Shown piece after piece: positions 1 to 28,511 of a stretch of DNA of 64,000 nucleotides (within the stretch, counting starts at the first letter, position 1; every line of letters begins with the position of its first letter). The stretch lies in the NCBI GenBank assembly GCA_017395505.1, contig JAFPUH010000004.1:7910-71909 (forward strand), in the 5' to 3' direction. Source of the stretch: Kiritimatiellia bacterium (GTDB lineage Bacteria; Verrucomicrobiota; Kiritimatiellia; RFP12; UBA1067). The translations under genes and the position numbers were made by a program. A model generated the notes under the pieces. It saw only the letters and a list, made by a program, of their open reading frames with translations, ran no database searches and was not told the DNA's origin.

Positions 1-3000
1 GCATTCTTCAGGCTAAGGATACAACGTATTCTGGTCTGTTTGCAAGCAGCAACGACCGCATCGATGAAGTGTATGTGGCACCTGGTGAATCTACGGCAGG
101 TACGCTTACGCTTTCCGGTGCGCAAACGGCATCGAACGGTTTGATTGTCGAGACTGGTGCGTCCGTCAACCTCACCGGCACTTGGGTTGGTGATGCCACG
201 GTTTCCGGCACTTTCGGCGGTACAGGTACGCTGAACGGCGATTTGACATTCAGCGAGGGGTCGACAAATCGGGTGTTCGCGTCCGATACAGACGGCCTCG
301 TGGTCACCGGCACGCTTACATGTCCCGCAACGGGCACCGTAAAGGTCGATGTCAGCGGTATTGATCTTGAGGGCGTCTACTACCTTCCGATCTTGTCCGG
401 GCTGACTTCAGCCGATCCCGAGAAATTCGAGCTTGTCGACTCGTCGATTCCGTTTGGATTTGTTTTTGCGGGTGGAGAGCTGGGTCTTGAGCGCAAGAGC
501 GACTATCTGGAGCTTTATCACGACTACGTAACGTTTACGCTTAACAATATCGGCACTACGCCGATCACCAACTACACACTGCTGGTTCGTATCTCCACGG
601 CACAACTGCCAGGCTTCTCCTACGAAAGGGCGGGGGACGGCTCGAAAATCGCCTTTTCGGATGGCCATGGTGCGCCTCTTGTCCATGAAATCGATACGTG
701 GAATACTCACGGCGAGTCGCTTGTCTGGGTCAAGGTGCCGGAGGCGGTGAATGGTACGCAGGTAAAATTCTACTGGTCACTGAAGGACGGCGCGGATGCT
801 CCGGCAAACGATCCGACGGCAGTCTGGTCTGACTACACCGGTGTTTGGCATATGGGCAAAGATGGTTTAGATGAGACTGGCCTCAACACTTTTGTCAAGA
901 CGCGCGAAGACGTAGAGGAAAGAGTTGGACAGTTCGGTAACGCCTTGGGGGCATCTAGTGCACAAGGCGATGCCTTGCTGACATTCAAGCCAGGCGATGC
1001 GCTGGAAGAAATCACGAATTCCGAGTTTACGGTGAGTTATTGGGTTAACTTCGATAACGATAATGCGCATTTGCCGTATCTTTTTGGAAGACTTACGGCG
1101 GAAGGCAATCCTGGATATGGTGTAAGGCTCTACTATCGTGGAGATACAAGCAAGGGCGGCGTAAACAGGGCTGCAAATGGTGGTACATCCATTGCGGTCT
1201 ATCATGGCGGTGGATCTAATATTAGGTGGACATGCGACCCTGGTTTGATTGGCTTGGGCATAGGCACTTGGGTTAGGATGGATGTAGTCTATGGTGGAAC
1301 ATCAATAAAGATCTTTGTCAACGGAATAAAGCAGTTTGAAACGTCGGGCATAAACCCGTCCCAACACCCGATACGAAACGGCGACGCTGATTTTGGAATA
1401 GGAGGATTGGTAAACGGGGCTAATTATGCGCTTGTTGGTGCGATAGACGAATTCCGTATACACGCTGGTGGTGTTGACACCGCATTGCTTGCCGCTGAAA
1501 TAGCGAACGCCAACTTCAGCGACTATTGTGGTGCGCTCGAAGGCGATGGAGTGAGCTTCCTCGTGCCGGGCACTGTCGTCAGGGATGGCGTTGCGTATGA
1601 CTATTGGGTGAAGAGCCCGACGGTAACGCCAACTTACTGGAATACCAACGACGTTCCTGCTGTCGTTACATATACCGAGGGTGTTCTGCGTAGCGGCTCC
1701 AGCGTGACCAACTGGTGCGAAAACCTGCTCACTCATGAGGAGTACGACGTTTCTTCGGATACTCTTCGCAGTCTCCCCGGCGGCACCTATTGCATACACT
1801 GCAAAACCGAAGGGGCTTTCGAGATAGATGAGGACGAGAGGAAGGTTTACTTCACTATCGTCAAAGATTCCGGTACGGCATCCGCCGGCGATACGGCGGG
1901 CGGCCGCATATTGCTGATGAACAACGACTTCAGCCAGGGTGGAACGGCGGATGAGCCTACAATCGGATCTCAGGGCTATTCCGACACGAACGAAACCGCG
2001 GCTGTCTATTGGCAGTTCGCCGACAGGACGTCTTCGGGCATCACCACCATGAATGTCATGGATGGCACCAACTCCATACTGTGGTCCGTCAGCGACGACA
2101 AATCCGTCACCAACAAGTTGTGGCACCTCGTGGCTTCTCGCCACGGCAATACCTACCCGAGCGACGGCAGCGGCCTCGACGACAGCCAGAACTACCTGCC
2201 TTGGTCGACAATGTCGTGCTCGCTCACCAACGGCACAGTCGTCGCGCAGAGCGGCGCAGACGCCGGCCAGATATTGATGCTCAACACCACCGAGGCCGCG
2301 GTCTACTCGCCGTGCTACGACGAGGGTATCGGCACCATCTATTTCGACGCGGTCAACGGATGGAACGACGACCTAACCGCCTACCAGCTCATAGTCGAGT
2401 ATGCTACGGCCACTACGAACGGCGATCCGGTTGTAGACGCAAACCTCTGGCAGTATGATGACGACGGCAACGTCACCAACTACTACGGCAACCTTGACGC
2501 GACGTGCTGGCAGGCTTGCGAAGTCAATGTCGCCCGTGTAACAGGCGGCGATACGGTCAATGATCCGGTGACGTACCCGAGGGCGTTCAACCTTGAAGTC
2601 GAGTCGGGCCGCCCGACAACGACAGGCGAGTTCTACAGGGTCTACGCGAAGCTCAACGTGCGCGAGCCTGTCCGCTTCAGGATCCGCCGAACCAGCATCG
2701 ACGGCGCAAAGGCCGCTACTCCCGATTCGTCCTATCTGCTGCTCGACAACATAATAGTCTCCTATCCCGCGATGGGTGCAACCCTAAGCCCCGCCGGCTG
2801 GTATGACGAGACCAAGAAGGGGGCCAACGTAGTTGGTTTCGAGGGAGCCTTCACAAAGGCGTTCCCGGCTGTCGGCGACACGGTTCACGGCAAGGCGGTT
2901 GTCGACTACTACGTAAATTCATCCCAACATCTCACCGAAACGAACTTCTTCGCGTCGGCGACGATGAACTACCGCTGGCGCTATCTCAAGAATGTCTCGG

Positions 3001-6000
3001 AATGGAAGAGCGTAGCACTCGATCCGGATGATGATTTCCGTTCGGCCGAGCCGCTTGAGCTGCCGGATGAGGTGGGTGATATCGAGTTCTGGTACGAGTA
3101 TGTGCTGCAGGCGCCTTACTACAGCTATGCCGACTACACCGGCCTGCCGAATCTTGAAAACGCCTTTGCGGCGAAATACAGCGAGGCGACGCTTGGTCCC
3201 CAGACCAACCGCTCCACAAAGGTCGATTTCTCGTATCCGACCTTCGGCAACGACTGGTTCGTGCGCCTCAGGGCGAGTTCGAGCAGCAATGAGGTCTGGC
3301 GCGTCTTCGTAAGGAACGCCGACGGCTCCGCCTACTCGACTGAGGATGGAACCGTTGAATACATAGATCTTGCGGTGACGGATACCGGCTCGTGGCGAGG
3401 CTTCCTGCGTACGCCGGCGGCAGTCGAGGGCGGTCTGGAGTATCGTGTCGAGCAGATAAACCCCCAGGCGGATGACGCGGATTTCGCGTTCTCAACCAAC
3501 TATTGGAAGGGTGTCGCCGTATTCGCCGACACCATAAAGAGCGTCAATCTCACGGCCGCCGGTATCGACGAGTGGTCAACCGTGCCATGTGCGGCGACGA
3601 CGGGCTTTATGATGTTCGTGCTTGACGAAGGCACGCCGTCTCTCTCGGTGACGAGCGCCGACCTGCAGAACTTCGACAAGTGGAACGACGCCAACAAGAA
3701 CGACAGGCTCTTCGTCGGCACCTCGGCCGAGGATAACGCGAAGTCCGGCGTCTCGCACACGATGCGCACCTACGAGGCCGAGTTCGATATGTGGGCGCCT
3801 TCCGTCGCCACAAACCAGTACTGGATCGAGTCGTTCAAGGAGAACTGGACTCGCTACGTTGAATTCGGCGCCGGCACCAAGACGCCGAACGGCTGGACCG
3901 CAGGTTCGGGAATGTGGATATACGAGAAGTACAAAGACAACTCGTCCTCGGATTCCATGGCGCTTCAGATGGCAGGGCGCGGCGACGGATATCTGACGTT
4001 CGCCAACGCCGGCGAGAGGCCTCGCGGAATCGAGAGCATAAGCTTCCGCAGCAGGCTGGCGCAGAGTGCTTCGCTCGCCGATTTCGGCTACAACGAGAAC
4101 GTCCACAAGGGGCTGACCAACTACACTTTCGTCGTTCAGGCGGCGATGTCGACGAATGCCGTCACATCCGGCGGTGCGTGGGATGCCGGTTTCGACGGTC
4201 TCGGGCAGATATCCGTGCTGGGCGGCTATCGCGTCAACAAGGGCGGCTACGAGCTGCGCATTACCCGCTGGAAGGAGAAGCGCTATCGCGCGGAGCTCTG
4301 CAGGTGGGTGGGCGACGTCTGCACGGTCGTCAAGGAGTGCGAGGCGGATCTCGACTACGACAAGATGCCCTATACGATAATAAACGGCAGCGACTACCCG
4401 ACGCTCTTCATCTCGGTCGATTACCAGAGCGACGGCAGCTGCAAGGTGCAGGCCGGCTTCTCGGGCGAGGCGGGAGGGCCTTCCGGAATCGACGGCACGT
4501 CGAACGGACACTCCGCGTCTGGCGTTCTGCCGTCGACCGGCAACTACATAACATTCTCGTATACCGACACTGCCCCGCCCACCTCATACGGCACGTATGG
4601 CCTCGCCTCGGCAAACTGCGACGCCGTGTTCGCGGGCGCCAGGTTCTACGGCAAGGCCGCCGGCGGTTTCGACGATTCGGACGTGTTCAAGCGCGTTGCG
4701 TGCAACGGGTTCGATCCAGGTTCGGGCGCAACGTCCGAAAGCGAGGATATCGACGGCGACTGGGCGCTTCCCGTGCGCCTCACTTACGACACGACCGCGA
4801 AAAAGATCTTCTCCGTGGCCGACGAGCAGCCGCTTGTCGTGCAGTGGAAGCTGCCCGACGAAGGCGACCTCGAGTGGAAGGATATCGCCACAACGAACAT
4901 TTCGAGCTATACGCTCTCCGACACGATAACCATACCCGTCCTTCTCAAGGAAGACGCCTATGTGCGCATCAAGCACGGCGGCGCGAGGAGTGACAAGAAC
5001 TGCGTGGACATCGTGGTGGACGACGTGACCATAAGACAGTGGCGCGGCGACGACTACGACAACACGAAGACACAGACGTATTTCAGGGATGTCCTCTACG
5101 GTTCGCCAACCAACTTCGTATTCACCTCGGCATGGCTCAACGACGAGGGCAGCGTGGAGCTTACGGCCGCGAGAGCGGCGACCAACGAAGTCTCGTCGCT
5201 GCGTTCGCCGCTGATGGACGGCGAGTCCGGGCGCGGCGTCGGCCTCGGCATGTTCTCGTTCTCGTACACCAACGCCGACAGCCGCGCCGTGCTTTCGCTG
5301 CAGATTGCGACGAACGTGACGATGATGACGCTTGCCGAGTACACGAAGCTTGCCGTCGACGATTCCCGCTGGCAGACAGTCACGAACTTCGAGTTCTCCG
5401 CCATGAGCGAAGACGAGCTTGCCGGCGGCGTGCTGTCATGCTATCTCGGCATGCACGGCGTCAAGGGCGCTATGCGTCTCGTGGTCGATCCCGATACGGC
5501 GGTCGCCGCCGATGCCGCGAAGGATGCGGCATACGGGCGCATCTTCATCACGCAAGTCATTTGCCGCGACGAGCCGAGCCTCGACAGCTCCTGCTGGTGG
5601 GGCTGGAACATCCGCACTGGCGAAGACCTGTATTCCGCTGACGACAAGCTGCTTATGAACCTTTCCGACTGGCCGGGTTCCGGCGGAGCCGACGCGGGCA
5701 TGTCGTTCGCCCTCAACAACTCGGTGGTTGACGACACGGAGACGAGCGATCCGACCACATACCGCCAGCATCAGCCGTTCCTGCAGACGCCCATATTCAC
5801 GAACAACACCGCAGTCGGCGAGATAACCTTCAAGGCGCGCCGCTACGACATGCCTTCCGAGTTGACGCCCAGGGTCTGCATCTATGGCGCCAACCCGAGC
5901 AGCGGACACGTCGACACCAGCGATGACGCCAACTGGACATACGTGACCCACTTCGATGTCACCAACGACTTCTACCGCACCTACACCAAGAAGTTCAAGG

Positions 6001-8489: not shown

Positions 8490-8496
8490 GGAACGC

Positions 8497-8526
8497 TTGC
8501 CAAAATGCACTTAAATTTGATAAAAT
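8497..8526 (+). promoter_or_regulatory. sigma70-like promoter candidate, TTGCCA-18-TAAAAT with a TG extension, upstream of giant gene 2
   Basis: TTGCCA at 8497-8502, TG at 8518-8519 and TAAAAT at 8521-8526. It sits in an AT-rich island within the 66-nt gap. Confidence 0.45.
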
Positions 8527-8555
8527 CTACAACGGTGTCTAAAAGAGGAAACAAC

Positions 8556-11500
8556 ATGAAGAAGAAACTTCTGCTGCCAATCATCGGTATGCTCTCGCTT
8601 GTCGCATCCGCCGCCGGCGAAACAGCGCATGTCTACGAGATACGGCCTTGGAACAATGTTACCAAAAGTGTTTCGACCAACGGGCAGAGTTCCGCCGAGA
8701 ATCCCATCAAGGGTGGCGATACGTTCTACTTCCTGGTTCGCTTGTTGAATTCCGGCTGGAAGACTCTAGGCGCCGCGACAAATTCGTGGGAGTTCACGAC
8801 CCTCGGCAGCTATGAGGCGAACTGGGCGACACAGCCGCCGCACATCGGTATCGTCGTCAGCGGTGTGACGGTTCCCGCGACGATTGAGGCGTGCATAGCC
8901 GACACGAACATCAATGTCAAGTCTTCAAGCGTCTACTATACGGATATTATCTGCAGCTACACGGTCAAGCCGGGCGATTTCGCGCTGCCTGTTCTTCTTG
9001 CATCAGATTCTGCCGGTACGCCGGTTGATAACGACAATCCGACCATCTATCTTGACAACGGCTTCGGCACTTGGTCGCTTTCTTGCGGTTCAGACACGGC
9101 AATACTGCAGCTGGCGTCTTTGGCGGGTGCAGAAACCACAGTGTACGCTACGCCAGATACAGCTTTTTCGATGCGCGAAGCGGATATCGATCTTTCCCAG
9201 AGCGGTTTTTATCTCAAGACGGTCGACTTTACAGGCCGCAATGACGCCGATTCATGGTATTCCGCCACGGTCTGGCGCGGTGTGCATGGAGCCGGAACTT
9301 CACCTGAGCCTAGCATCGCAAGCGTGACGGTCTCCGGAATGCCCACAAATTCCGCAACCCTCTATGTGTGGAGCGACAGCGACAGCATCCAGATAGGCGA
9401 CGGCACGCTTGAGACGATCAACAGCAAGACGTGGGTCCCCGGCTCGCCTGGCTCGCCGGCTACTTTCTCCAAGAAGGTAAAGGCGATAGAGATAGAGGCT
9501 GGCGTCCAGACATACACCTTTACGCTTGACGCATCGGCCGGCACAGAGGGCGATACGGCAAACCTTTATCTTAGCCAGTTCAAGGGGCATACCTTCAATG
9601 CTACCAACCTCAACCCGGACTACCTTACGATACCCGTAAAGGTAATCGAGCCTGAGAAGGCCAACGTCAAGGCCGTCGCCACTACGTCAAAGGTGGATGT
9701 GCCGGCAGATTCCGACAAGGTCGCCGACCCCATCGGCACCCTTACGCTCAGCATCTCGCCCGGATACCAGGCAAAAGCCTCGGACCTCACGATCACCATC
9801 ACTCCAGAGCTGCAGGACGGAACCGCCGGCGCCTCCAACTATGTGCATATAGCATCGTCCAACGATGCCTCAGCCTGGCTCAACAGCGATCCGCTGGTGG
9901 TCAGGGTCTCCAGCAACACCACCGACCCCGATTACGACGTCAACTTCGCCACCGGCAAGGCCGTCACCAAGACGATCTACGTCTACGGCCTTGGCGCCGA
10001 CCAGCACACCGCGACGGCAGGGCACGCGGTATTCTTCAATGTGGAGCTAGACGCCACGGCCATCGGGTGGAAATACTTTGACGGATACAGCGACACCACC
10101 TCGCGCGGCGTGATGTATCTGCGTCCCGTGAAGGCGGGCCTGTCCGTTGCGTCGACCTACGAGGCGATCGGCAACATCAACCGCACGTTCGAGCTTACTG
10201 TCAGCGACAACTACAAGAACGTGAGCGACGACACGGGCTACACCATCAAGTACAAGCAGTCCGCCGAGGACGATTGGGAGGTTCTCGCGGGCACCTTCAA
10301 GCCCGACGCCTACGGAGTGCTCTACTCGACGGCGGACGGCACGACCCTGCCCTCGCTCAGCTACATACCCGGCACGTTCACCACCACCTTCAAGGTCGTC
10401 ACCCCCGGCGGCGACATCGAGAGCAACGAGGCCTCGACGACGGTCACGGTCTCCGAACCGGCCCGCGTAAGCGGCGAGATTCTGCTCGAGGGCGGCGCTA
10501 CTGCCGAGACAGGAACCTACGTCGAAAGCGACGACGAGATAATAGACGTCCGCGCTTCGCTTTCGCGCGCCTACACCAAGGCCGACGCCCTCTACGCGTT
10601 CCTTGCGCCGGCCGATGCCGCCACGATGGCGTGCGTCTCCGGCACCTTGCTCACCAACTCCACCGCGTCGGCCGGCATGAAGATACTGAAGGGCGATACG
10701 ACGTCTGAGAAGGGCGAGCTCTACATCGTCGACGGCGGCAAGGGTTCGGGCACCACGCTCAACTTCGATATCGTGCTCTGCACAACACCGACCTACGACC
10801 CCGCGAACATCGTAAGCAACGCCTACCAGTCCAAGACGTTCAAGCTGACGGCCAAGAACCAGACGCCGGTGGTGCGTTCAGTGACGGTCGATGGCCTCTA
10901 CACTGTCGAGAACTCGGGCGACACCCTCGGCGCCTCCGTGTCGATGGGCGTGCCGAAGAAGTTCACGTTCGATGTCGGCGACGTCGAGAAAGACCTCAAG
11001 GCAACTACTCCAGACAATGAGTTCCAGGTCAAGTATTCGATCGTGGAGGGCAGCGGCGCCGGCACACCCCAGACGATACTCGAGGGTGATCCGGCTACGA
11101 CCAACTTCACCTACACCTTTACCTCTTCCGGCCTGGCCACGATCAAGCTGTGGGTCAAGGACAAGGACATGACGACCTTCGCCACCACGCCCGACTTCTC
11201 GTTCAAGATGAACATACTCGATTATCCGAGCATCTCCATCGCCAACGACTTCGGCGGCGCCATCGCCGAGGGTCAGGTCGGCCTAGCCAACTCCAAGATG
11301 ACGCTCAAGCTGAGCGAGAACGCGTCGCCAGATCCGCTCGACGTCGAGATAACGGTCGACCCAGTCGATTCTTCGGCGGCAGATCCGGGCCTCATGCTGC
11401 TTGGCGGCATTAATCTCACGAACAAGATCGATTCCGTAACCGGCGACACGATAACCAACGTCTACTGCATCGCCCTCAAGCCGGGCCAGACCACCTACGA

Positions 11501-14500
11501 CTTCTACCTCACCAAGAGCGACGGTACGCTGGCGAGCGAGGTCAGCGGCTTCAAGCTGACGCCCAAGGTGACCACGACCAACGCCGTGCCGAATCTTGCC
11601 GGCAAGACATGGGACACCTACTACATCTCCGACGCTTCCGCCATCGCCATAAAGAACGTCGCGCCGACGATCGTCTGCTCCCTAGGCGAGGAGAACGTTT
11701 CGACCAACGGCTTCAAGGGCGCCATCGGCAACAACGAGGAGATCACCTGGCACGTCGGCGACGCCTCCGAGCTCGACCTCGCGGCCGGTCTTGACTGCCA
11801 GTGGTGGTCTACGGACTACGGCGACGAGCCAAAGACCAACATCACGAGCGGCGCCGAAATCAGCTTCACGCCCAGGTTCAAGACTTCAGGCACGAAGATG
11901 ATACGCCTGACCGTCACCGACAAGGACAAGGCCACCGGCAACGGCACGACGGTGATGTCGTGGTACTACGAGGTCGAGCCCTCCAAGACCCTCAAGACCA
12001 TCGCGCTCGGCCCGTCTCGCGGAACCGGCAACTCGCTCGTTTCGCAGCGCTACGCCGCCGCCGCCGGCATCGGCGAGGGCCACGTGTTCGCGGCCGGCGA
12101 TTTCGCGGGCGCGACGAGCTATGTGCTTTCGTGGAACTGCGGCACCGACCTGTCGGTGAATTTCTGGGCATGGGGCTACAAGACGAACACCGTCGACAAC
12201 GGCACCCTGAACAGCTCCACTGCCTACGAGTTCGACGTGCCGCTCGATCCCCACGGCAACAACTCCGGCGACGGCAAGAGTGCGCTTGCGAAATACTACG
12301 CCTACACCCCCAACGACGACTGCGACTCGTTCTTCTACGGCCTGCTCTTCACCTCTATCGACGAAGGCAGCTCTTCGGTTTCCTCCTCGCTCAGCGGCAG
12401 CACCGTAGCGCCTGAGATCGTCGGCCGCGAGATCGAGGTGCCTACCCTTTGGATTCCGCTGCCCGACACTACCGCAGGCGAAAGCGGCAAGTATGTCGAC
12501 ACGATAGTCGAGGCGATCTTCTCGAAGGAATACGATACGACCGACAACATGGGCGATATCGACCAGGACGGCCTGCCCGACTACTTCGCAGTCGACAAGA
12601 TATGGAAGACCGGCTCTCCGCTGGTCGCCGTGGACGGCGTCGGCGGCGAACTCGGCAACGGCGCCTCCCTGAACGACGACGGCGACTACCTGCCGACTGA
12701 AGCGCAGCTGCTCAACGGCACTGTCGTCTCGAGCGCCGGCTGGGACGAGAGCGGCCAGCCCTTCACCGCGAAGCTCGAGGCGCGCGGCTTTCACAAGGGC
12801 CTCAACTTCGGCATGTTCCCGATTACCGATGGCGAGGGCTGGGTCTCCGACCTCGATCTGAGCGTCGCCGAAATCGCCGCCCTCAACAGGTATGTGGCGA
12901 CACGTACCGATCTGCCGTGGTGCACGAACGACTACACCGACGTCATGACCGACTACGACATGCGCACGAATGCGATGGACTGCATACGCCAGTCGTGGAA
13001 GGGCTACAACAAGTTCAACACCTCGAAGTGGGGCTTCACCGTCGAGAACCGTACCGATCCCACCCAGTGGGATACCGACGGCGACAACATCCCCGACGGC
13101 TACGAATACTACTACTGGTACGCGGCGACGGTCGGCTATGATGCCGCCGGCACGCCCATGACCGGCGAAAAGTTCAACCTCGCGGACATCGAGAGCCCGA
13201 TACCGATCACCTCCGCCGAGATCGCCGGGCTCATGAACCCGAACATCGCAGCCGACTATCAGTGGGGCAAGCAGGATAGCGACGAGGACGGCCTCAGCGA
13301 CTACGAGGAGTATGTGCTCGGCACGAATCCCTTCAAGTGGGATACCGACGGCGACGGCCTGAGCGACCTCTACGAGGTTCTCTACGGCATCGATCCGCTC
13401 GCCAACAACAGCAATGCGAACAACGGCGACTACAATGGCGACGGCGACTACATGGCTACGGCCACGCTCGGCACCTATGCGATTTACGAGTATGGCGGCA
13501 AGGCCTACGCCTACATCATCCCCTTGGATATTCCGGGAATTCCCGGCCCCGGAACCAACACTCTCTCCGGCGTCGGCTTCGAGGTCGCGGAGTTCAACGG
13601 CGGCTACATGCCGGTCTCGCGCACCTTCACCGAGAGCGACGAAAGCGCAACGCTTGCCGACTACGTCTACGATACGACCGACGCGTCAGCGGTGCCCGTG
13701 GTCAAGACCGGCAACGTCGTGCTGTACCACTACCAGGTCTACAACTACTTCGGGTTCAGCCCCCGCACCGCCTGGTACGGAACATGGCCGAACGGCACCC
13801 TTTCGCCGACGAGCCGCTGGCTTGAGAACGGCTCGCCGCTTACGGCCGGCACGCCGGACAAAACCCAGGCGTATACGGCGCTCGACGAGTTCCGTCTGCT
13901 GAAATACCGCTACATCACGGGCCTGGCGAGCTACGCCGACGACAAGAAGGCGATAGATGAAGCCGACGACAAGGTTCAGAAGCGCACAGACATCCTTATC
14001 GCCAGGACGACCAACGGCGGCGTGGCGCAGGATGAAAAGACGGTAGGCAATAGGACCTTCGCCGCGAAGGTGCATGGCGCCGACACCGACAGCGACGGCG
14101 TGCCGGACGGCTGGGAGCTCTATGTCGGCGTCAATCCCAACATACCCTACACCGATACGGTGCACGAAACCCTGTATAACGCCATACGCCAGCTTGATGC
14201 AGGTGATGGCCTTGCCCTCGCCGCCGAATACGCCGGCACCGACTCGACGCTCGCATATCAGGCATGCGAGACGATCTACGCGAACCACCCGGACAATGAG
14301 TCGGGCTGCATGTACCAGTGGTACAACAAGTTCTTCCCGACCGACCCGCGATCTTCCGATACCGACGAGGACGGTGTGGAGGATGGTGCCGAGAAGGCCA
14401 ACTGGTCCAGGCCTTGGACCTACAACCGCTGGGCCAACGGCAAGACGGCGAAGGTCGACGGCAAGGGCATTACCGCCCACCACAAGACCATCTACGGCAG

Positions 14501-17500
14501 CCCTTACGATTCTGGCGTGAGGAGCGTCAGGGGCGGCGGCGGCAACCCCTGCACGATCGACACCGATCAGGACGGCCTGCCGGACGGCTGGGAACATCAG
14601 TACGCCGGTGTGGTCTTCACGGGCGACAGTCTTGCGGAAGGCTCGCTCACAACAGAGGGCACGATCGACCCGTCGCTTTACGACGACATCCGTGCGGCGG
14701 CCTCGGCATACAACTCCAGCAGCGTTTCCAATGTCTCGTTCTATGTCTGCATGGGCCAGGACATCACATATCCCGACGCATTCACCGATGTCTCGAAGGG
14801 CCTCACCTCGGCCGACTGGGATGGCGACGGCCTCGAGAACGGACAGGAGTACATGATACAGGCGATGCGTCATCTGCGCTACGACGACTCCATCACGCCC
14901 CTGATGGGCCGCGACTGCGCGGGCTTCAACGCCGCCACTGGCAAGGTCGAGCCCGGCGCATGGAATGGCGAGGGCGGCGCGAGCGGCGACTCCGGCTTTG
15001 TGTCGGTTCCGCTCGGCGAAGAGCTGACCAGCGGCGAGCTCGAGACCCTCGAAAAGCTCGGCTACGGCAACTTCGCGGCGTACGTGAAGGGCCATCCGGA
15101 ATATCTGCGCACGCTCGGCTACTTTGCGGAGCCGCCGCAGTCATGGGACCCTGCCGGTCTCGAGGGTGTCGGCTATCGCTACATGCTGCCGCCGCATCTT
15201 GTGCGCTACTCCACCGCCGCGGAAAAATTGCAGGCGACGGATGCGCTTGGCAACACGCTTTGGGCATATCTCGACTACGATCCGAATGTGGCGTATGACG
15301 AGTGGAGCACCAGCACGTTCCCTGGGGTCGTTGTGACCAACACCGTCTCCGGTGACCCGAGACCTCTCGACGACAATCCGCAGACGTTCTACACGAAGGC
15401 CGATCACGGCAGCATCGTAACCGACGGCACGATGTACTATGCCATCGATTACGAGATCGCGTCCGGTGTCACAAACGTCTACCTCGACATCGTCTGCAGG
15501 GTGTCCGGCGGCACTACGACCAACCTCGTGGTGACCAACGTAGCGGCTTCCGCCTACGTCTCGACCGATCCGCGCCTGTGGGATACCGACGAGGACGGCA
15601 TGGACGACTACTACGAGATGTTCCACGGCCTCAACCCGATTCTCGGCAGCATCGGCACGATCGAGCGCTATGACATCACGAACACCATTGCGGGCGTCGA
15701 CTATGTGACGACTTACGTGAGCATGAGCGGCGCCAGCGATGTCATCTATGATGCCTACGGCTTGGTTAGCGTCGCAAGGAACGCCTGGATCGGCTGGGAT
15801 TTCGAGAACGAGGTCGTTTACGACGCTCTCAGGTATCCGTGGATGATGGGCGCGGGCCTCGCCGACGCCGACGGCGACGGCCTCAGGAACGAAGAGGAGG
15901 CGCTCTTCGCCAACCTCGCTTCGCCCACCACGTCCCATACCGACCCGACCCCGCTGTGGATGACCGACACCACGGTGGGCTACACAAACTATGTCCTCAC
16001 GGCGACATATCCCGTAACGAACTATGTGTACACGGCCGACGGCACGATAATGACGAAGAAGGATCCCGTTGGGGGACGCGAGCCCGTCTACTCAAACATA
16101 GTCGACAGGACCGTGATCAAGGGCTCGTTCAAGGTCTTCAAGTCTCCCTCCTACACGGCCCAGTACTACGATGCGCCCTGGTATGATATCGGTGCGGGCT
16201 TCAGCTCGGGCTATGCGTTCGACTTCGAGCAGAACGAAGGCTACGACACCGACAGCGACAAGCGCAGCGATTCGATCGAGCGCCGCAACCTGACGGAGCG
16301 CTCGAGCGACCCGCTCGACTTCTCCGACCCGATGCGCCGCCAGAGCATCCACTTCGGCGGCGACCTCGACGAGGGTGTCGCGGTTACCTTCGACCCCGTG
16401 ACGAGGCCGACATACGCCTCCAACGCCGACTTCCTGAAGCAGTTCACGGTCGAGGCGTGGGTATTCCCCGAGAACCTCTCGGTGACGCACGACCAGTATA
16501 TCGTTTCGCGTTCTGCGAACTACGGCGGCTGGAGCTTGAGCAACTCCAACGCTGTGATACGCACGTCGTTTGCGATCGGCATCAATCCCGCCGGCTATCC
16601 GTTCGCCGAAATCGAGGATACGACCAAGTCGAGCGAGCGCGTATACAGCACGAAGCCGCTTGCTGTCGGCAAGTGGAGCCACGTCGCCGCCACCTACGAC
16701 GGTGAGACGTTTGTGATCTACTTCGACGGCGAGAAGGTTGGCGAGAACAAGACCTCCATCATACCGGCCACCGGTGTGACGGCCGTCGAGCAGGATCCTC
16801 AGACATCCCACAGCGCGTACTTCCCGGTGGTGGATTATGTGACGGTTCCTTCGGCGACTGTGATCGGCGCCAGGGCCAGCGGCGCAGGAGCGTTCGGCCA
16901 CGAGGCCGCCGCCGAGATAACGGTCTGGACAGACCTTGCGGACGACTTCTACAAGGGCTCCGTCAGCGAGGTGCGCATCTGGGACGGCGCCAGGACCGCC
17001 GCCGAGATCGTCGATGCCTACAAGAAGGCGTTCACGTCGGCTGAGATCGACGAAATGCGCCGCGACATCTACAGCCTCTACGATAACAGCACGGCCCGCC
17101 GCAACGACACCACGGTCAATTCCGTACTGCCCGCCGAACTCGTGCAGCACTACAACTTCTCGACGATCGGTGGTGCCACGGCGAAGACCAACGTGCAGAT
17201 AGTTCCCGCAGGCTTCGAGAAGAACGTGCTGGATGAGGTTTGCGAGAACGGCGCGCCCGTCAACCGCAAGCTTCTCAACGTCGGCTGGTGGAGCGACCTG
17301 CTAAACAATACAGTGCTCGGCACATCGGTTTACGCTTCGCCTCACGTCGTGCCGTGGCTCGGCAACACCGTCGGCCATATGCCGCGACTCTCCGGCGCCG
17401 TGGCCGACAGCGTGTTCTGGAGCGAGCGCTTCGCCGGATGGACGCCCGCCTCGTTCCATGGCCTCGAGAAGTTTGCCTTCCCGAACACGATGGATCCCTA

Positions 17501-20500
17501 CAACATCGTCTACAGCCGCAGTTCCGGTTCGCGTTCGCAGAAGGATCAGAGCCTCATCTACAAGACGCAGATACTGCGGGCTCAATATCCCGATTCCGAG
17601 GACTATGATGAGTTCTGGACGCAAAACCTCTACGACCTGAGGCGCGAGTTCCCAGGTACGAGCGACCTCATTCCGCTCGGTTCGGCATACGCAGAGCGCA
17701 AGACCTCCTATTGGGATGGTCAGGGCCCGGAAAGCGCCTGGGCGATTACGTCCACCAATTCGCTGGTGGCGGTTGACGGCGACATCAACGACAACGGCAT
17801 TCCCGACTGGGCCGAGGCGACATACGCGACCCCGCTGGATTACGTCCGCGCCCTTGCGCACGGCCTGCTGCCTCCGACTGGGGCGATCGACTCCAATTAC
17901 GAGAACACTGAGGATATCGACGGCGACGGCCTGCGCGACTGGTGGGAGAAGTTCTTCGGCATCTACAGCGAAGGCCCGAATGACGACCACGACCGTGACG
18001 GCCTCTCCAACTACCAGGAATACCTGATCGGCGAGGTCTACACGAGCTTCGGCTTCACCGACCTCAGCCCGACGGCCGCCTACTCGAAGGGTACCGCCGT
18101 TACGGACTACTTCCTGCGCTACGGCAGCCTCTACCTCGGCGAGCTGTTCTCCGACCACGACATGATCGAAGACTCCTTCGAGGACTACAAGCCCAGCGTC
18201 GTCTCGCTCGGCGGCACGCTCGTCTCCAACTTCTCGCGCTACATCTACGACGCCGACTGGGATGCCGAGCACTCCGGCTGGGACAACTGGTCGATTGCCC
18301 GCGCGTGGTTCAACGAGAGCTACACCTCCAATGTGGTAGTCGAGGTCGGTTCGACGGCCGTCACCAACGAGTATGTATTCTCGAAGGTGGATGACAACAA
18401 CGGCAATCCAAACCCCAGCATCCCGATCCGCGTGACCTACAGGGACAAGAACCGCATACACACCGGCATCGGCAACTACGACAGCAACCCGCACCAGATA
18501 GTCGTGATGGCCTGGAGCCTTGAGAACTCCAGCCGCGACAAGGCGTTCGGGGCGCCCGACTGCATCTGGGGCAACAAGCTGGTCGGCGAGGGGCCCTACT
18601 ATGTGATGGAGGGCATCGCCAAGGGCTACGCTGCCGCCAAGGGCGCCGTCAGGCCTGGCAGGAACATGTTCGCCGCCTACATCGCAGAAGGCGAATACGT
18701 CGAGGGAGGCACAACGCCTGGCTTTGCGCCCGGTCTGCCGTATGGTGTGACTATCGGTGAGGTCGGTCCTGTCGGCGGCGCCGACATCAATATCGAGCTG
18801 ACCGATACCAACCCGTCCATCGTCCGTTTGAACGTGGCGGCCGCGTTGGCGATTCAGAACGGCGACGAGTCCGGATCGCTCACCGCCGGAACGGAGGAGG
18901 CGACCACCGGCTTCAACACGATAGCGCAGACCTATACTGATAGGGGCCAGCGCGAGACAGGCTCGCTCAAGATGTCTTACTACATTGGCGAGGATACCGA
19001 GTTGACGGTTTCGAACGTGCATGTCAGGGTGCTCCGCTCCAACATCAACGGAGTTGCAAGGGCTGAAGATGATACTATCCTCAGTTCCATGAATGTCCTC
19101 CTCGATTGCCACCTCAACCTCGCAGTAAACGGCATGCTGACAGAGGCCGCGCTGCTCGCTACGCTAAAGCCAGGCGAGGGCGATCTTGATTGGGGTGGCC
19201 TCGCATTTGCCAGTGACGTATTCAATGGCATGCAAAACATCACCAACGCGGCCTACCGTATTGTGATAGGCGATGGCGTTGTTGACAATGAGCTGGACAA
19301 CAACAACCTTATCGTGATGTTCATCAACAAGTTCGAGACCGTGCAGACGCCCGTCACTAACATGAACGTCAGGACGTTCTCCGGACGCCCGACCTTCAGC
19401 TGGTCTCACAACAACACGATCGGCAAGGACTATCCCGCATTCCAGTTGAGGGTTTGGGATGCCACAACCGATGCGCTGGTCTACGATTCTGGCGTGCAGC
19501 GCGCTCCTGTCCGCGACCAGGGCGGCTACTACAATTGGGCGGCACCGCTCTATGTAGGCGCGCTGTTGCCCAACGGCCAGACGTTCAGCGCCAACACCAA
19601 GTACAAGTGGTCCGTGTCGATGCTTGACGCCAAGTTCACGACACCCAACACCACAGAGGTGAAGAAGGAATTCGCGATGCAGGAGACCTCGCCCGGTCCA
19701 GGCTCCGACGATTACGGCATCATAAAGGTGGCTGTCAAGTATATGGGACCTGGCACTGTTGCTACGACGACAACCAACGACAGGATTCGCGTTGAGGCCT
19801 TCACGACGCCAGACTTTGTCGGCGAACCTGCCGGTGTCGGCTATGTTACGAGCAGCGCCACGTTGGATTCCGTGAACGCAATCGATGTCAACGCCACAAT
19901 CGCCGGTCTGCCCGTGAAGGATAACTACGGCAGGACTGCGAAGTACTACGTGCGTGCGTTCCTCGATACCGACGTTACATCCGCCGAGGGCGGCTTCGGC
20001 AAGCGTGCGCCTTGGGAAAGCTGGGGCTACGCTTCGTATCGCGATCCGAAGGAAGGCCGCGACGACCAGTTCACGGCCATGCCCATTACGGCGACCAACA
20101 ACGAGAATGCCGAGCCTTGCGTAGTCTTCATAGAAGATTGCGACACCAACCGCAACATGGTGCCCGACATCCTCGAGAAGGCTGCTGGTGCGACAGCCAA
20201 CAAGCTCATCTCGCCCTACATCGCGTTCACGGCGAGCGATATCGTGAAGACCAACGCTCTCATCGATGCGACTAACGGCGTAAACGGCATTGCCGCCACC
20301 GTCAGAACCTCGCGCATGCTGCTCGCCTATGCGAGCGCGGTCGAGTCCGCCAAGAGCGGCACCGTAACAGCCGGCGAGTTGGCCATCCTCACTGGTGCCG
20401 TCAGCTTCGACACTACCGACTCGACCTACATCAAGATCAAGAGCTTCTCGCTCGACGAGGGCATCTCCCTCGAGGTGGTTGTCGGCGACACGTTTGACAA

Positions 20501-20750
20501 CGCCGTGGCCGCAGGTCTCGACACCGGCCTCATCAACGTTACGGTCGAATACTCCGAGACCCTCGATGACGGCGGCGACTGGCAGAAGGCCACCGACTCC
20601 GTAACAACGATATCCTTCCCGCTCAAGCCAGGTACAACGACGATCGACGCCTCCGAGCTTGGTGCGATCAAGGATGCGATCGAGAGCGTAAAGGCGAAGT
20701 GCGAGGGCGGTTGCTACTTCAGGGTGAGCGCCGTCGCCGTAGAGGAATGA
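8556..20750 (+). CDS. Giant secreted protein (4,064 aa) with a Sec signal peptide, PKD/Ig-like modules, dispersed thrombospondin-type-3-like Ca-binding loops, a LamG domain and C-terminal FN3/Ig-like modules.
   Basis: ATG 8556 is preceded by AAAGAGGA (8542-8549). The N-terminus MKKKLLLPIIGMLSLVASAAGE looks like a signal peptide, whereas the track start at 8505 adds 17 non-signal residues. PKD-like ends: KLWVKDKD and RLTVTDKD. At least 12 DxDxDG(L/I/V)xDxxE loops occur between about 12550 and 18040. LamG-like region: FTVEAWVFPENLS...VSEVRIWDGARTAAEIVDAY (about 16345-17030). Confidence 0.88.
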   Translation: MKKKLLLPIIGMLSLVASAAGETAHVYEIRPWNNVTKSVSTNGQSSAENPIKGGDTFYFLVRLLNSGWKTLGAATNSWEFTTLGSYEANWATQPPHIGIVVSGVTVPATIEACIADTNINVKSSSVYYTDIICSYTVKPGDFALPVLLASDSAGTPVDNDNPTIYLDNGFGTWSLSCGSDTAILQLASLAGAETTVYATPDTAFSMREADIDLSQSGFYLKTVDFTGRNDADSWYSATVWRGVHGAGTSPEPSIASVTVSGMPTNSATLYVWSDSDSIQIGDGTLETINSKTWVPGSPGSPATFSKKVKAIEIEAGVQTYTFTLDASAGTEGDTANLYLSQFKGHTFNATNLNPDYLTIPVKVIEPEKANVKAVATTSKVDVPADSDKVADPIGTLTLSISPGYQAKASDLTITITPELQDGTAGASNYVHIASSNDASAWLNSDPLVVRVSSNTTDPDYDVNFATGKAVTKTIYVYGLGADQHTATAGHAVFFNVELDATAIGWKYFDGYSDTTSRGVMYLRPVKAGLSVASTYEAIGNINRTFELTVSDNYKNVSDDTGYTIKYKQSAEDDWEVLAGTFKPDAYGVLYSTADGTTLPSLSYIPGTFTTTFKVVTPGGDIESNEASTTVTVSEPARVSGEILLEGGATAETGTYVESDDEIIDVRASLSRAYTKADALYAFLAPADAATMACVSGTLLTNSTASAGMKILKGDTTSEKGELYIVDGGKGSGTTLNFDIVLCTTPTYDPANIVSNAYQSKTFKLTAKNQTPVVRSVTVDGLYTVENSGDTLGASVSMGVPKKFTFDVGDVEKDLKATTPDNEFQVKYSIVEGSGAGTPQTILEGDPATTNFTYTFTSSGLATIKLWVKDKDMTTFATTPDFSFKMNILDYPSISIANDFGGAIAEGQVGLANSKMTLKLSENASPDPLDVEITVDPVDSSAADPGLMLLGGINLTNKIDSVTGDTITNVYCIALKPGQTTYDFYLTKSDGTLASEVSGFKLTPKVTTTNAVPNLAGKTWDTYYISDASAIAIKNVAPTIVCSLGEENVSTNGFKGAIGNNEEITWHVGDASELDLAAGLDCQWWSTDYGDEPKTNITSGAEISFTPRFKTSGTKMIRLTVTDKDKATGNGTTVMSWYYEVEPSKTLKTIALGPSRGTGNSLVSQRYAAAAGIGEGHVFAAGDFAGATSYVLSWNCGTDLSVNFWAWGYKTNTVDNGTLNSSTAYEFDVPLDPHGNNSGDGKSALAKYYAYTPNDDCDSFFYGLLFTSIDEGSSSVSSSLSGSTVAPEIVGREIEVPTLWIPLPDTTAGESGKYVDTIVEAIFSKEYDTTDNMGDIDQDGLPDYFAVDKIWKTGSPLVAVDGVGGELGNGASLNDDGDYLPTEAQLLNGTVVSSAGWDESGQPFTAKLEARGFHKGLNFGMFPITDGEGWVSDLDLSVAEIAALNRYVATRTDLPWCTNDYTDVMTDYDMRTNAMDCIRQSWKGYNKFNTSKWGFTVENRTDPTQWDTDGDNIPDGYEYYYWYAATVGYDAAGTPMTGEKFNLADIESPIPITSAEIAGLMNPNIAADYQWGKQDSDEDGLSDYEEYVLGTNPFKWDTDGDGLSDLYEVLYGIDPLANNSNANNGDYNGDGDYMATATLGTYAIYEYGGKAYAYIIPLDIPGIPGPGTNTLSGVGFEVAEFNGGYMPVSRTFTESDESATLADYVYDTTDASAVPVVKTGNVVLYHYQVYNYFGFSPRTAWYGTWPNGTLSPTSRWLENGSPLTAGTPDKTQAYTALDEFRLLKYRYITGLASYADDKKAIDEADDKVQKRTDILIARTTNGGVAQDEKTVGNRTFAAKVHGADTDSDGVPDGWELYVGVNPNIPYTDTVHETLYNAIRQLDAGDGLALAAEYAGTDSTLAYQACETIYANHPDNESGCMYQWYNKFFPTDPRSSDTDEDGVEDGAEKANWSRPWTYNRWANGKTAKVDGKGITAHHKTIYGSPYDSGVRSVRGGGGNPCTIDTDQDGLPDGWEHQYAGVVFTGDSLAEGSLTTEGTIDPSLYDDIRAAASAYNSSSVSNVSFYVCMGQDITYPDAFTDVSKGLTSADWDGDGLENGQEYMIQAMRHLRYDDSITPLMGRDCAGFNAATGKVEPGAWNGEGGASGDSGFVSVPLGEELTSGELETLEKLGYGNFAAYVKGHPEYLRTLGYFAEPPQSWDPAGLEGVGYRYMLPPHLVRYSTAAEKLQATDALGNTLWAYLDYDPNVAYDEWSTSTFPGVVVTNTVSGDPRPLDDNPQTFYTKADHGSIVTDGTMYYAIDYEIASGVTNVYLDIVCRVSGGTTTNLVVTNVAASAYVSTDPRLWDTDEDGMDDYYEMFHGLNPILGSIGTIERYDITNTIAGVDYVTTYVSMSGASDVIYDAYGLVSVARNAWIGWDFENEVVYDALRYPWMMGAGLADADGDGLRNEEEALFANLASPTTSHTDPTPLWMTDTTVGYTNYVLTATYPVTNYVYTADGTIMTKKDPVGGREPVYSNIVDRTVIKGSFKVFKSPSYTAQYYDAPWYDIGAGFSSGYAFDFEQNEGYDTDSDKRSDSIERRNLTERSSDPLDFSDPMRRQSIHFGGDLDEGVAVTFDPVTRPTYASNADFLKQFTVEAWVFPENLSVTHDQYIVSRSANYGGWSLSNSNAVIRTSFAIGINPAGYPFAEIEDTTKSSERVYSTKPLAVGKWSHVAATYDGETFVIYFDGEKVGENKTSIIPATGVTAVEQDPQTSHSAYFPVVDYVTVPSATVIGARASGAGAFGHEAAAEITVWTDLADDFYKGSVSEVRIWDGARTAAEIVDAYKKAFTSAEIDEMRRDIYSLYDNSTARRNDTTVNSVLPAELVQHYNFSTIGGATAKTNVQIVPAGFEKNVLDEVCENGAPVNRKLLNVGWWSDLLNNTVLGTSVYASPHVVPWLGNTVGHMPRLSGAVADSVFWSERFAGWTPASFHGLEKFAFPNTMDPYNIVYSRSSGSRSQKDQSLIYKTQILRAQYPDSEDYDEFWTQNLYDLRREFPGTSDLIPLGSAYAERKTSYWDGQGPESAWAITSTNSLVAVDGDINDNGIPDWAEATYATPLDYVRALAHGLLPPTGAIDSNYENTEDIDGDGLRDWWEKFFGIYSEGPNDDHDRDGLSNYQEYLIGEVYTSFGFTDLSPTAAYSKGTAVTDYFLRYGSLYLGELFSDHDMIEDSFEDYKPSVVSLGGTLVSNFSRYIYDADWDAEHSGWDNWSIARAWFNESYTSNVVVEVGSTAVTNEYVFSKVDDNNGNPNPSIPIRVTYRDKNRIHTGIGNYDSNPHQIVVMAWSLENSSRDKAFGAPDCIWGNKLVGEGPYYVMEGIAKGYAAAKGAVRPGRNMFAAYIAEGEYVEGGTTPGFAPGLPYGVTIGEVGPVGGADINIELTDTNPSIVRLNVAAALAIQNGDESGSLTAGTEEATTGFNTIAQTYTDRGQRETGSLKMSYYIGEDTELTVSNVHVRVLRSNINGVARAEDDTILSSMNVLLDCHLNLAVNGMLTEAALLATLKPGEGDLDWGGLAFASDVFNGMQNITNAAYRIVIGDGVVDNELDNNNLIVMFINKFETVQTPVTNMNVRTFSGRPTFSWSHNNTIGKDYPAFQLRVWDATTDALVYDSGVQRAPVRDQGGYYNWAAPLYVGALLPNGQTFSANTKYKWSVSMLDAKFTTPNTTEVKKEFAMQETSPGPGSDDYGIIKVAVKYMGPGTVATTTTNDRIRVEAFTTPDFVGEPAGVGYVTSSATLDSVNAIDVNATIAGLPVKDNYGRTAKYYVRAFLDTDVTSAEGGFGKRAPWESWGYASYRDPKEGRDDQFTAMPITATNNENAEPCVVFIEDCDTNRNMVPDILEKAAGATANKLISPYIAFTASDIVKTNALIDATNGVNGIAATVRTSRMLLAYASAVESAKSGTVTAGELAILTGAVSFDTTDSTYIKIKSFSLDEGISLEVVVGDTFDNAVAAGLDTGLINVTVEYSETLDDGGDWQKATDSVTTISFPLKPGTTTIDASELGAIKDAIESVKAKCEGGCYFRVSAVAVEE

Positions 20751-21917: not shown

Positions 21918-21932
21918 AGGGAGTTTCGTAAA

Positions 21933-22970: not shown

Positions 22971-22980
22971 GGGAGACATC

Positions 22981-28469: not shown

Positions 28470-28487
28470 GAAAATTTAGAGTATAAT
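28459..28487 (+). promoter_or_regulatory. sigma70-like promoter candidate, TTGAAC-17-TATAAT, directly upstream of the secretin gene
   Basis: TTGAAC at 28459-28464 (inside the last codons of the PilP-like gene), a 17-nt spacer, and TATAAT at 28482-28487. Confidence 0.5.
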
Positions 28488-28511
28488 ACACCCAGAATAC
28501 CTCCAAGGAGC

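Follow-up and report, generated by a model that had tools for sequence, protein, structure and literature searches.

Two tandem giant proteins of a Kiritimatiellia bacterium, candidate surface proteins encoded upstream of an Amuc_1098‒1102-like gene cluster

RTX (repeats-in-toxin) adhesins of the LapA, SiiE and Bap type and SwmB of Synechococcus are substrates of the type I secretion system (T1SS), lack a Sec signal peptide and carry many tandem Ig-like or RTX repeats. Here we analysed two neighbouring open reading frames, ORF1 and ORF2, at the start of a 64,000-nucleotide stretch of DNA from a Kiritimatiellia bacterium (contig JAFPUH010000004.1), hereafter called the window. In general features rather than by homology, the two encoded giants resemble these adhesins in being thousands of residues long, acidic, furnished with calcium motifs, non-enzymatic and presumably located at the surface. 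ORF2 differs from them by its Sec signal peptide and by the lack of both an RTX motif and any internal repeats that self-BLAST could detect. We consider ORF1 (~390 kDa) and ORF2 (~430 kDa) to be non-enzymatic, calcium-stabilised and antigenically variable giant surface proteins of host-associated (ruminant gut) Kiritimatiellae, a reading to which we give a probability of about one half.

Strings of DxDxDGxxDxxE loops like those of ORF2 also occur in CglD and MtsD of Myxococcus (NF033765 and NF047639) and in thrombospondin and COMP, proteins linked to adhesion or cohesion. In thrombospondin, the thrombospondin type-3 (TSP3) loops adjoin a concanavalin-like β-sandwich, and in ORF2 the TSP3 loops flank a LamG domain. 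ORF2 is nevertheless not a member of the CglD or MtsD family, since it reaches 24‒34 bits against cut-offs of 400‒800, matches in the repeat region only, has neither a VWA domain nor a lipoprotein signal and is four times larger. A further described system, the Amuc_1098‒1102 cluster of Akkermansia muciniphila, comprises the same families that are best matched by a gene cluster 3.2 kb downstream of ORF2. The proteins of this cluster are abundant envelope proteins in Akkermansia (PMC5332112, PMC4960237). The secretin has 1,191 amino acids (aa) here and 907 aa in Akkermansia, and no giant has been described as part of the Akkermansia system. Our literature searches returned nothing on giant proteins in Kiritimatiellae, nor on the genes that flank the Amuc cluster.

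The frames of two tandem giants filling the first 20.7 kb, and the 66-nucleotide (nt) gap between them, agree with the preliminary description of this DNA. The ORF1 frame runs from nt 3 through 2,828 codons without a stop to the stop codon at 8487‒8489. The length of at least 2,828 aa given earlier holds within the window; the gene call on contigs with an identical ORF2 now extends the protein to 3,697 aa, of which the first 869 residues lie outside the window. After a spacer of exactly 66 nt, the ORF2 start codon is preceded by an AGAGGA ribosome-binding site. The promoter-like site already pointed out in this gap was recovered as TTGCCA-18-TAAAAT with a TG extension, matching 10 of 12 consensus positions, whereas shuffled sequence averages 0.2 such sites. 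Its −10 element, TGATAAAAT, is also found 5′ of ORF2 in the related metagenome loci L001 and L014, where the remaining spacer differs, and it is kept in L014 even though ORF2 there is only ~40% identical to that of the window. An in-frame ATG at 8505 was rejected as the ORF2 start, since this stretch is better explained by the promoter and the ribosome-binding site. Rfam and tRNA scans of the window found no RNA genes.

ORF1 and ORF2 are genuine genes. The identical ORF2 protein is encoded on five contigs, which come from ENA metagenome samples labelled XIEF21-1 and, going by this label only, probably represent ruminant gut. Homologues of ORF2 lie on more than 80 other contigs and those of ORF1 in about a dozen loci; the names attached to the homologous proteins are Kiritimatiellae or, in older usage, Verrucomicrobia. 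Against the ~80%-identical orthologues in L001, the ratio of non-synonymous to synonymous substitution rates (dN/dS) is 0.17‒0.19 for ORF2 and 0.23 for the C-terminus of ORF1. Since dN/dS is 0.17‒0.23, both genes are functional.

Whole-protein and tiled Pfam scans (E ≤ 1), NCBIfam scans and PDB sequence searches left ~90% of both proteins without a match. In ORF1, the matches are confined to Laminin_G_3 (PF13385; aa 336‒500, 46.8 bits against a cut-off of 27.6) and a sub-threshold DUF2341 (PF10102; aa 212‒271, 18.8 bits for the whole protein and 21 bits for the tile against 23.4). In ORF2, they are confined to TSP3_bac repeats (PF18884; 36.2 bits against 25), Laminin_G_3 (aa 2627‒2735, 67.9 bits), which is also the sole PDB similarity found for this protein, and a sub-threshold PKD_4 (aa ~1083‒1131, 18.8 bits against 27, E 0.0017). 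Residues 520‒2828 of ORF1 and 1‒1080 and 3150‒4064 of ORF2 matched nothing in the three databases, and the C-terminal 160 aa of either protein gave no Pfam match even at E ≤ 10. A motif scan detected 11 strict and at least 13 loose DxDxDGxxDxxE motifs in ORF2 and one loose motif in ORF1. ORF2 is acidic (Asp and Glu 13%, Lys and Arg 6.7%) and has neither a strong internal hydrophobic segment nor a lipobox; two stretches exceed a mean Kyte-Doolittle value of 1.6 over 19 aa, namely the signal peptide and a segment around aa 97 that is weak, with a maximum of 1.82. ORF1 and ORF2 were unrelated in direct comparison, and we rejected the idea that they are paralogues.

The preliminary description had called both proteins mosaics of adhesin- and extracellular-matrix-type modules. 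LamG and TSP3 bear this out and DUF2341 stays below threshold; since ~90% of the residues are unmatched, a mosaic of known modules is too strong a description. The PKD/Ig-like modules named there shrink to the sub-threshold PKD_4 in ORF2, with a PKD match at E 0.001 in one of 11 ORF2 relatives, and the lamin-tail-like module has no counterpart in Pfam at E ≤ 10 in ORF1 aa 2230‒2420, nor in the tiles. On the other hand, its statement that no catalytic motif is visible agrees with the Pfam and NCBIfam scans, which at permissive thresholds detected no enzyme or toxin domain in ORF1, ORF2 or 11 ORF2 relatives.

ORF2 belongs to a family that is represented by no dedicated model in Pfam or NCBIfam, is not described in the literature searched, and occurs in gut, rumen and digester Kiritimatiellae. 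An exhaustive search with ORF2 aa 3065‒4064 as the query recovered 521 cluster representatives at E ≤ 1e-3, of which 270 reach E ≤ 1e-30; of the 150 matches listed, 107 are 3,123‒7,774 aa long, most of them with the match at the C-terminal end. A word-indexed search with a 1,000-aa C-terminal query returned two matches, none longer than 1,742 aa, and missed the 53%-identical, 4,002-aa orthologue in L004, which reflects the limit of that search and not rarity. The family is defined by a signal peptide, a full-length collinear alignment with invariant TSP3 aspartates and LamG, and [FY][FYLM][KR][VILA] in the last 16 residues, all of which ORF2 possesses. Against sets of nine and of eleven diverse members, ORF2 aligns end to end at 31‒45% identity, and the invariant residues are spread along the whole alignment, those of TSP3 and LamG included. 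Pfam and NCBIfam scans of 11 members detected LamG in all 11 and TSP3 in 10, together with weak CglD/MtsD matches via the TSP3 repeats. A signal-peptide-like N-terminus is present in 100 of the 107 listed members of at least 3,000 aa, and the loose pattern GxIxx[IVF] follows soon after it in 74. The C-terminal motif is found in 93 of the same 107 (for example SGFFKVEVVQ), against a background of 0.7% per 16-aa window.

This motif represents a terminal strand of the GFFKVxV type, and ORF2 ends in CYFRVSAVAVEE. Over the 76 metagenome loci, conservation of ORF2 is highest in aa 1500‒2100, 2300‒2500, 3100‒3200 and 3500‒3900 and lowest in the N-terminal 1,300 aa and the last ~160 aa. A classical sorting domain should show the strongest conservation of all, so that the terminal strand alone stands out in the C-terminus. 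A profile built from eight orthologous C-terminal halves matched only LamG-type entries in the PDB. In L093, a member of 7,774 aa (10001‒33325) contains several internal copies of the C-terminal modules, and the family therefore seems to grow by internal duplication. Two overlapping loci on one contig, L069 and L083 (JAEIGA010000216.1), hold ORF2-like matches ~20 kb apart. In L001 (1071‒13309), a relative at 80‒86% identity, a frame change near aa 2263‒2276 divides the ORF2 orthologue into pieces of 2,333 and 1,742 aa; this is either an assembly error or a pseudogene.

The N-terminus of ORF2, MKKKLLLPIIGMLSLVASA followed by AGE, is an ordinary leader of the signal-peptidase-I type. Substrates of the type II secretion system (T2SS) are exported by Sec or Tat and then released through a secretin; they have no known sequence signature, and this Sec signal peptide is what the sequence of ORF2 can offer in support of that route. 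The other known pathways were searched for by their signatures. The Pfam and NCBIfam scans detected no β-barrel translocator or two-partner secretion (TPS) match of type V secretion (T5SS), and no Omp85-type gene lies in the window or in the loci examined. No C-terminal domain (CTD) of the type IX secretion system (T9SS; TIGR04183 type) was matched in the window proteins or in 11 diverse relatives. For PEP-CTERM/exosortase and LPXTG/sortase, neither C-terminus has a hydrophobic stretch and no hidden Markov model (HMM) matched. A T1SS RTX adhesin is not indicated, since ORF2 has a Sec signal peptide, no RTX family is among its Pfam matches and the window contains no pair of ATP-binding cassette (ABC) transporter and membrane fusion protein (MFP) genes. 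A type IV pilin or pseudopilin is not indicated either, given the leader type and the lack of any pilin or methylation-motif family among the matches. The earlier remark that no C-terminal signal can be recognised thus stands for canonical sorting domains but not for the terminal motif shared across the ORF2 family. A normal diderm envelope is described for the cultured relative K. glycovorans, in whose genome no systems other than Sec, the twin-arginine pathway (Tat) and T2SS were identified (PMC5148204). Since T1SS, T5SS, T9SS and exosortase or sortase are disfavoured and Sec, Tat and T2SS alone were identified in K. glycovorans, a secretin-based route is the default candidate, and passage across the outer membrane through a secretin, either that of a T2SS or the adjacent Amuc_1098-type one, is plausible.

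Both giants are under purifying selection, yet they diverge far faster than their neighbours and their synonymous divergence (dS) is mosaic. Against L001, dS of ORF2 is 0.51‒0.63 and varies from 0.16 to 1.5 per 200 codons, while that of the neighbouring ackA is 0.16. Locus L004 is identical to the window at 98% in ackA, 98.6% in pta, 93% in PilM, 82% in the secretin and 53% in ORF2, and over the loci with ackA at least 93% identical, ORF2 identity spans 34%‒86%. ORF2 is the fastest-diverging gene of an otherwise well conserved block. The mosaic dS points to an exchange of divergent allele segments together with weaker constraint, and the pattern is consistent with allele exchange under phage, grazer or host-immunity pressure. 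Such divergence would be typical of exposed surface components. Positive selection is unsupported as its cause, since dN/dS lies between 0.06 and 0.37 in every 200-codon window, and hypermutation is countered by the identical allele on five contigs.

We propose that Sec would move both giants across the inner membrane, that they would fold in the periplasm with calcium held by the TSP3 loops, and that they would finally sit on the outer membrane or beyond it, as elongated proteins of a coat or adhesin type. ORF2, in which the central TSP3/LamG part and the penultimate β-sandwich region are best conserved, would be the core component, and ORF1 may be its accessory partner. Several observations weigh against this proposal. 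The rapid divergence comes without an overall non-synonymous excess, dN/dS being well below 1, and the ~90% of sequence without detectable homology leaves room for a catalytic or toxin module. A folded protein of ~430 kDa is far above the typical size of known T2SS substrates, and neither the window proteins nor the 11 diverse relatives have a canonical C-terminal sorting or anchoring domain in Pfam or NCBIfam. The AlphaFold prediction of ORF2 aa 3065‒4064 from a three-sequence alignment also failed, with a mean confidence score (pLDDT) of 39.5; in this model, only the final ~110 residues reach a pLDDT of ~50‒72, as a mixed α/β region with the terminal motif as its last strand.

ORF1 appears, from sequence comparison, to be a fusion of the body of a β-solenoid surface protein to a DUF2341/LamG giant. 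Its window residues 1‒172, which have no Pfam match, share 43‒75% identity with the C-terminal part of over 60 Kiritimatiellae proteins of ~800, 1,250 or 1,550 aa with signal peptides of their own. In those proteins, the module is followed by 10‒55 residues and a stop, whereas the ORF1 frame runs on into DUF2341/LamG. The 480 residues that directly precede the window edge were taken from L091; they match the bodies of these β-solenoid proteins. In L093, the corresponding pieces are separate genes, one of 944 aa and then an ORF1-like protein of 2,852 aa with its own signal peptide; the ORF1-like protein of L011 has a signal peptide as well. From aa 172 onward, ORF1 aligns with the mature N-termini of stand-alone Kiritimatiellae DUF2341/LamG proteins (~1,280 aa; P0127‒P0139), whose N-terminal unit is ~30% identical to ORF1 aa 172‒520, and it shares 30% identity over ~350 aa with proteins that hold a precomputed PF10102 match. 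The stand-alone proteins have their own signal peptides and a short hydrophobic end tag such as ...GLMLIFR, whereas the ORF1 unit is internal and untagged. In an AlphaFold model of ORF1 aa 1‒560, the first 165 aa alone are well modelled, as a solenoid of short strands (pLDDT 86‒97). Foldseek gave this module its best probabilities, 0.69‒0.85, with the autotransporter passengers Ssp (8e7f), Ag43 (7koh) and IgA1 protease (3h09), but every E-value is above 0.1 and ORF1 has no C-terminal β-barrel, so that the likeness is one of fold.

Among 120 secreted DUF2341/LamG and β-solenoid proteins of Kiritimatiellae, the C-terminus of 55 is a run of 4‒8 largely hydrophobic residues capped by R, K, H, Y or F (background 1.6%), for example P0131 (...PGLMIFVR), P0204 (...QSLLIRIR) and P0153 (...RKGVMISVY) within P0124‒P0240. 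This run looks like a putative lineage-specific C-terminal tag, and it is absent from ORF1 and ORF2. A C-terminal domain common to ORF2 and the β-solenoid proteins (with endings such as YYRIAVG) was considered and rejected, since an HMM of the last 160 aa of ORF2 showed no significant similarity.

Orthologues of ORF1 that are 27‒48% identical lie in L011, L014, L027, L028, L030, L032, L036, L077, L081, L085 and L093. The ORF1‒ORF2 tandem is kept in loci whose ackA shows 78% identity or more, and likewise in L011 and L093, which are more divergent; in the clade with ackA ~60% identical, the upstream gene varies. In several relatives, an ORF of 112‒133 aa for a lipoprotein or membrane-anchored coiled-coil protein lies between the giants (L093 9648‒9986, L011 18649‒19050). 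The gaps between the giants are ~400 nt in L027, L077 and L081, and the 66-nt spacer of the window contains no such small ORF.

ORF2 is followed, after a gap of 30 nt without a terminator-like site, by three housekeeping genes and then by the pilus-like cluster, whose Amuc_1102-like gene starts at 23985. The preliminary description had placed an Amuc_1100-type secretin cluster 3.2 kb downstream. The distance is borne out. The gene order 1102-1101-1100-1099-1098 is that of the Amuc cluster, the best NCBIfam matches are the Amuc_1101, 1100, 1099 and 1098 families, and the genes look like a divergent homologue of Amuc_1098‒1102. Amuc_1099_fam alone passes its cut-off (80.6 against 50 bits); Amuc_1101, 1100 and 1098 score 374, 57 and 425 bits against cut-offs of 650, 180 and 750, and the Amuc_1102-like protein has no NCBIfam match, with PF28178 recorded for its orthologues. 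GspD and PilQ structures match the C-terminus of the secretin equally well. The Amuc_1098 model covers the 1,191-aa secretin (28512‒32087) from aa 285 on only, leaving an N-terminal extension of ~280 aa. The PilM homologue (24728‒26365) is 545 aa long and is covered by the PilM model up to about aa 346; its last 200 aa, with a weak GspL match, may be a fused PilN-like segment. Overlaps of 4 nt each between the pilM, 1100 and 1099 genes suggest that their translation is coupled.

We examined the linkage in metagenome loci, 76 of which were picked via the giant and 68 of which are informative, with at least 700 nt downstream. In 54 of the 68, ackA lies immediately 3′ of the ORF2-like giant, and in the longer of these loci pta, kpsF, Amuc_1102, PilM, Amuc_1100, Amuc_1099 and the secretin follow, even at identities of 58‒61% in ackA and 43‒47% in PilM. 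The earlier caveat that giants and secretin cluster might never be linked outside this genome is clearly removed. All loci picked via an Amuc_1102 homologue have a giant upstream of ackA, including L004‒L008 (homologue 59‒83% identical), and L002 and L003, picked with other anchors, show the same arrangement. A PilM-anchored genome scan with two peptide patterns only gave a single locus, and one related locus is from the rumen metagenome-assembled genome RUG13365. Past the secretin, the genes coaE, rho and uvrA share this synteny in four of the five loci that were followed to this point; in L007, the block is kept although synteny past coaE is broken.

The remaining 14 informative loci lack ackA after the giant. 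Nine of them (L037, L038, L039, L076, L062, L078, L079, L080 and L088) hold a giant of 3,463‒5,461 aa. In the eight of these that were inspected, the giant is followed by an ORF of ~1,460‒1,470 aa, and the three scanned (L037, L062 and L078) encode Peptidase_M6/He_PIG/MAM proteins, a domain set typical of secreted proteases. Next come cysE, metXW and prolidase genes, and no pil gene lies within 4.5‒9.5 kb. The proposed link between giants and secretin cluster is real as a matter of gene order in most loci, but it fails in these nine. In the linked arrangement, the giant always abuts ackA and never the pil genes, and the linkage is lineage-specific. With ackA as the immediate neighbour and most of the wider block syntenic too, the linkage is accounted for equally well by an inherited order of genes and by a functional tie. 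The association of giant and secretin is a conserved neighbourhood, not a demonstrated system.

The linkage bears on a different view of the giants, raised in the preliminary description, namely that they are the cargo, tip adhesin or fibre of the adjacent Amuc_1098‒1102 machine, exported by Sec, recognised by a PilMNOPQ-like complex, perhaps via the conserved terminal motifs, and passed through the 1,191-aa secretin or docked on it. The linkage down to the PilM identities given above, the co-directional genes with the short terminator-free gap after ORF2, and the conserved extreme C-terminal motif of the family would fit this view, yet three genes, ackA, pta and kpsF, invariably stand between the giant and the pil genes, the nine loci with the M6 protease, cysE, metXW and prolidase genes do without any nearby pil gene, and the synteny of coaE, rho and uvrA makes inherited order sufficient. 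Three weak points favour coupling. The first is the persistence of the L007 block past the broken coaE synteny. The second is a TSP3 motif that the protein in the Amuc_1099 position has in common with the giants, although this similarity is a short repeat only. The third is a solenoid paralogue beside another secretin: in L012 (10001‒21490) and L013 (1203‒12692), the 1,550-aa β-solenoid protein P0153, with the same module as the N-terminal part of ORF1, is encoded directly 5′ of a different, 569-aa secretin. The genes that follow that secretin encode TPR and VWA (BatA-like) proteins. Given also that ORF2 has no pilin-like N-terminus, we regard the cargo or fibre role as unlikely. Slightly more doubtful still is its general form, in which the ORF2 family would supply the large cargo or fibre so far missing from the Amuc_1100-type pilus-like machine of the Planctomycetes-Verrucomicrobia-Chlamydiae (PVC) bacteria, proteins of 400‒800 kDa without a known sorting signal that would be recognised via the conserved N-terminal domain and the GFFKVxV-type strand and threaded through, or docked on, the long Amuc_1098-type secretin.

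We also think it improbable, to the same degree as the cargo role, that the giants remain in the envelope as periplasmic or outer-membrane-associated scaffolds, neither displayed nor secreted. A Sec signal peptide without a recognisable signal for outer-membrane translocation or anchoring, and a size far beyond that of typical known T2SS substrates, would suit such scaffolds; however, the giants diverge several-fold faster than the neighbouring envelope proteins and have mosaic alleles, as is typical of exposed proteins, and an outward location is also suggested by their LamG/TSP3 content and by the large M6 protease associated with them. There is rather little to recommend a glycan-degrading or polymorphic-toxin module hidden in the unmatched 90%. 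For most of either protein no homology is detectable, the organism forages on glycans, and LamG often accompanies glycan-active enzymes; even so, the permissive scans of ORF1, ORF2 and 11 relatives detected no catalytic family, and the ORF2 family is collinear, with one end motif common to its members and no swappable C-terminal toxin cassette. The glycan foraging is suggested by the region past the secretin, where coaE, rho, uvrA and housekeeping genes are followed at ~50‒58 kb by a sialic-acid utilisation cluster (50308‒58390) with a BNR sialidase, a NanM-like mutarotase fused to a sodium:solute symporter (SSF), a Na/Ala symporter and a GlcNAc 2-epimerase; this cluster is consistent with a host-mucin or glycan lifestyle. 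Finally, a canonical T1SS, T5SS, T9SS or exosortase route for the giants, with a signal missed by eye, is very improbable, since the likeness of their size, acidity and calcium-binding repeats to T1SS adhesins, and of the ORF1 fold to autotransporter passengers, is outweighed by the Sec leader of ORF2, the lack of RTX repeats, the absence of β-barrel, TPS, T9SS CTD, PEP-CTERM and LPXTG matches in the window proteins and 11 relatives, and the report of Sec, Tat and T2SS only in K. glycovorans (PMC5148204).

Table 1 Positions of the features discussed, in window coordinates unless a metagenome locus is named
Feature	Position (nt)	Strand	Remarks
ORF1	3..8489	+	C-terminal 2,828 aa of a 3,697-aa protein; the window edge cuts the 5′ part
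β-Solenoid module of ORF1 (window aa 1‒172)	3..518	+	Conserved; elsewhere the C-terminal end of many Kiritimatiellae secreted proteins
DUF2341-like and Laminin_G_3 region of ORF1 (aa 212‒500)	636..1502	+	Laminin_G_3 E 4.6e-12
Promoter-like site in the ORF1‒ORF2 gap	8497..8526	+	TTGCCA-18-TAAAAT with TG extension; consensus match only
ORF2	8556..20750	+	4,064 aa, ATG at 8556; acidic, non-repetitive; member of a collinear giant-protein family
Sec signal peptide of ORF2	8556..8612	+	MKKKLLLPIIGMLSLVASA, then AGE; read from sequence
TSP3-loop region of ORF2 (aa 1334‒3155)	12555..18020	+	At least 13 calcium-binding-type loops; motif scan and Pfam TSP3_bac
Laminin_G_3 domain of ORF2 (aa 2627‒2735)	16434..16760	+	Pfam E 1.4e-18
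Family-defining C-terminal region of ORF2 (aa ~3360‒4064)	18633..20747	+	Matched by 521 representatives; ends in strand motif CYFRVSAVAVEE
ackA, pta, kpsF	20781..23964	+	Housekeeping genes between the giants and the pilus-like cluster; Pfam and NCBIfam
Amuc_1102/1101 (PilM)/1100/1099/1098 (secretin) homologues	23985..32087	+	Context; functional part in the finding not shown
M6 (InhA-like)/He_PIG/MAM protease gene, L037	13253‒17656		Beside the giant, ~1,470 aa
M6 (InhA-like)/He_PIG/MAM protease gene, L062	17731‒22146		Beside the giant, ~1,470 aa
M6 (InhA-like)/He_PIG/MAM protease gene, L078	21803‒26176		Beside the giant, ~1,470 aa

Giant secreted surface proteins are a familiar kind of protein, and two more of them are unsurprising. 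What is new is the ORF2 family itself, with 521 cluster representatives and giants of 3.1‒7.8 thousand aa among the matches listed, in a lineage with very few cultured members. Nearly all of the ORF2 sequence is unlike anything known, and the gene is the fastest-diverging one in a conserved block. New, too, is that these proteins have no known mode of crossing or attaching to the outer membrane and yet usually lie beside a homologue of the Akkermansia Amuc_1100 cluster. If the giants are exposed, they are likely to be major determinants of attachment, of susceptibility to phages and grazers, and of host recognition. If they depend on the neighbouring secretin, the Amuc_1100-type system would gain a cargo.

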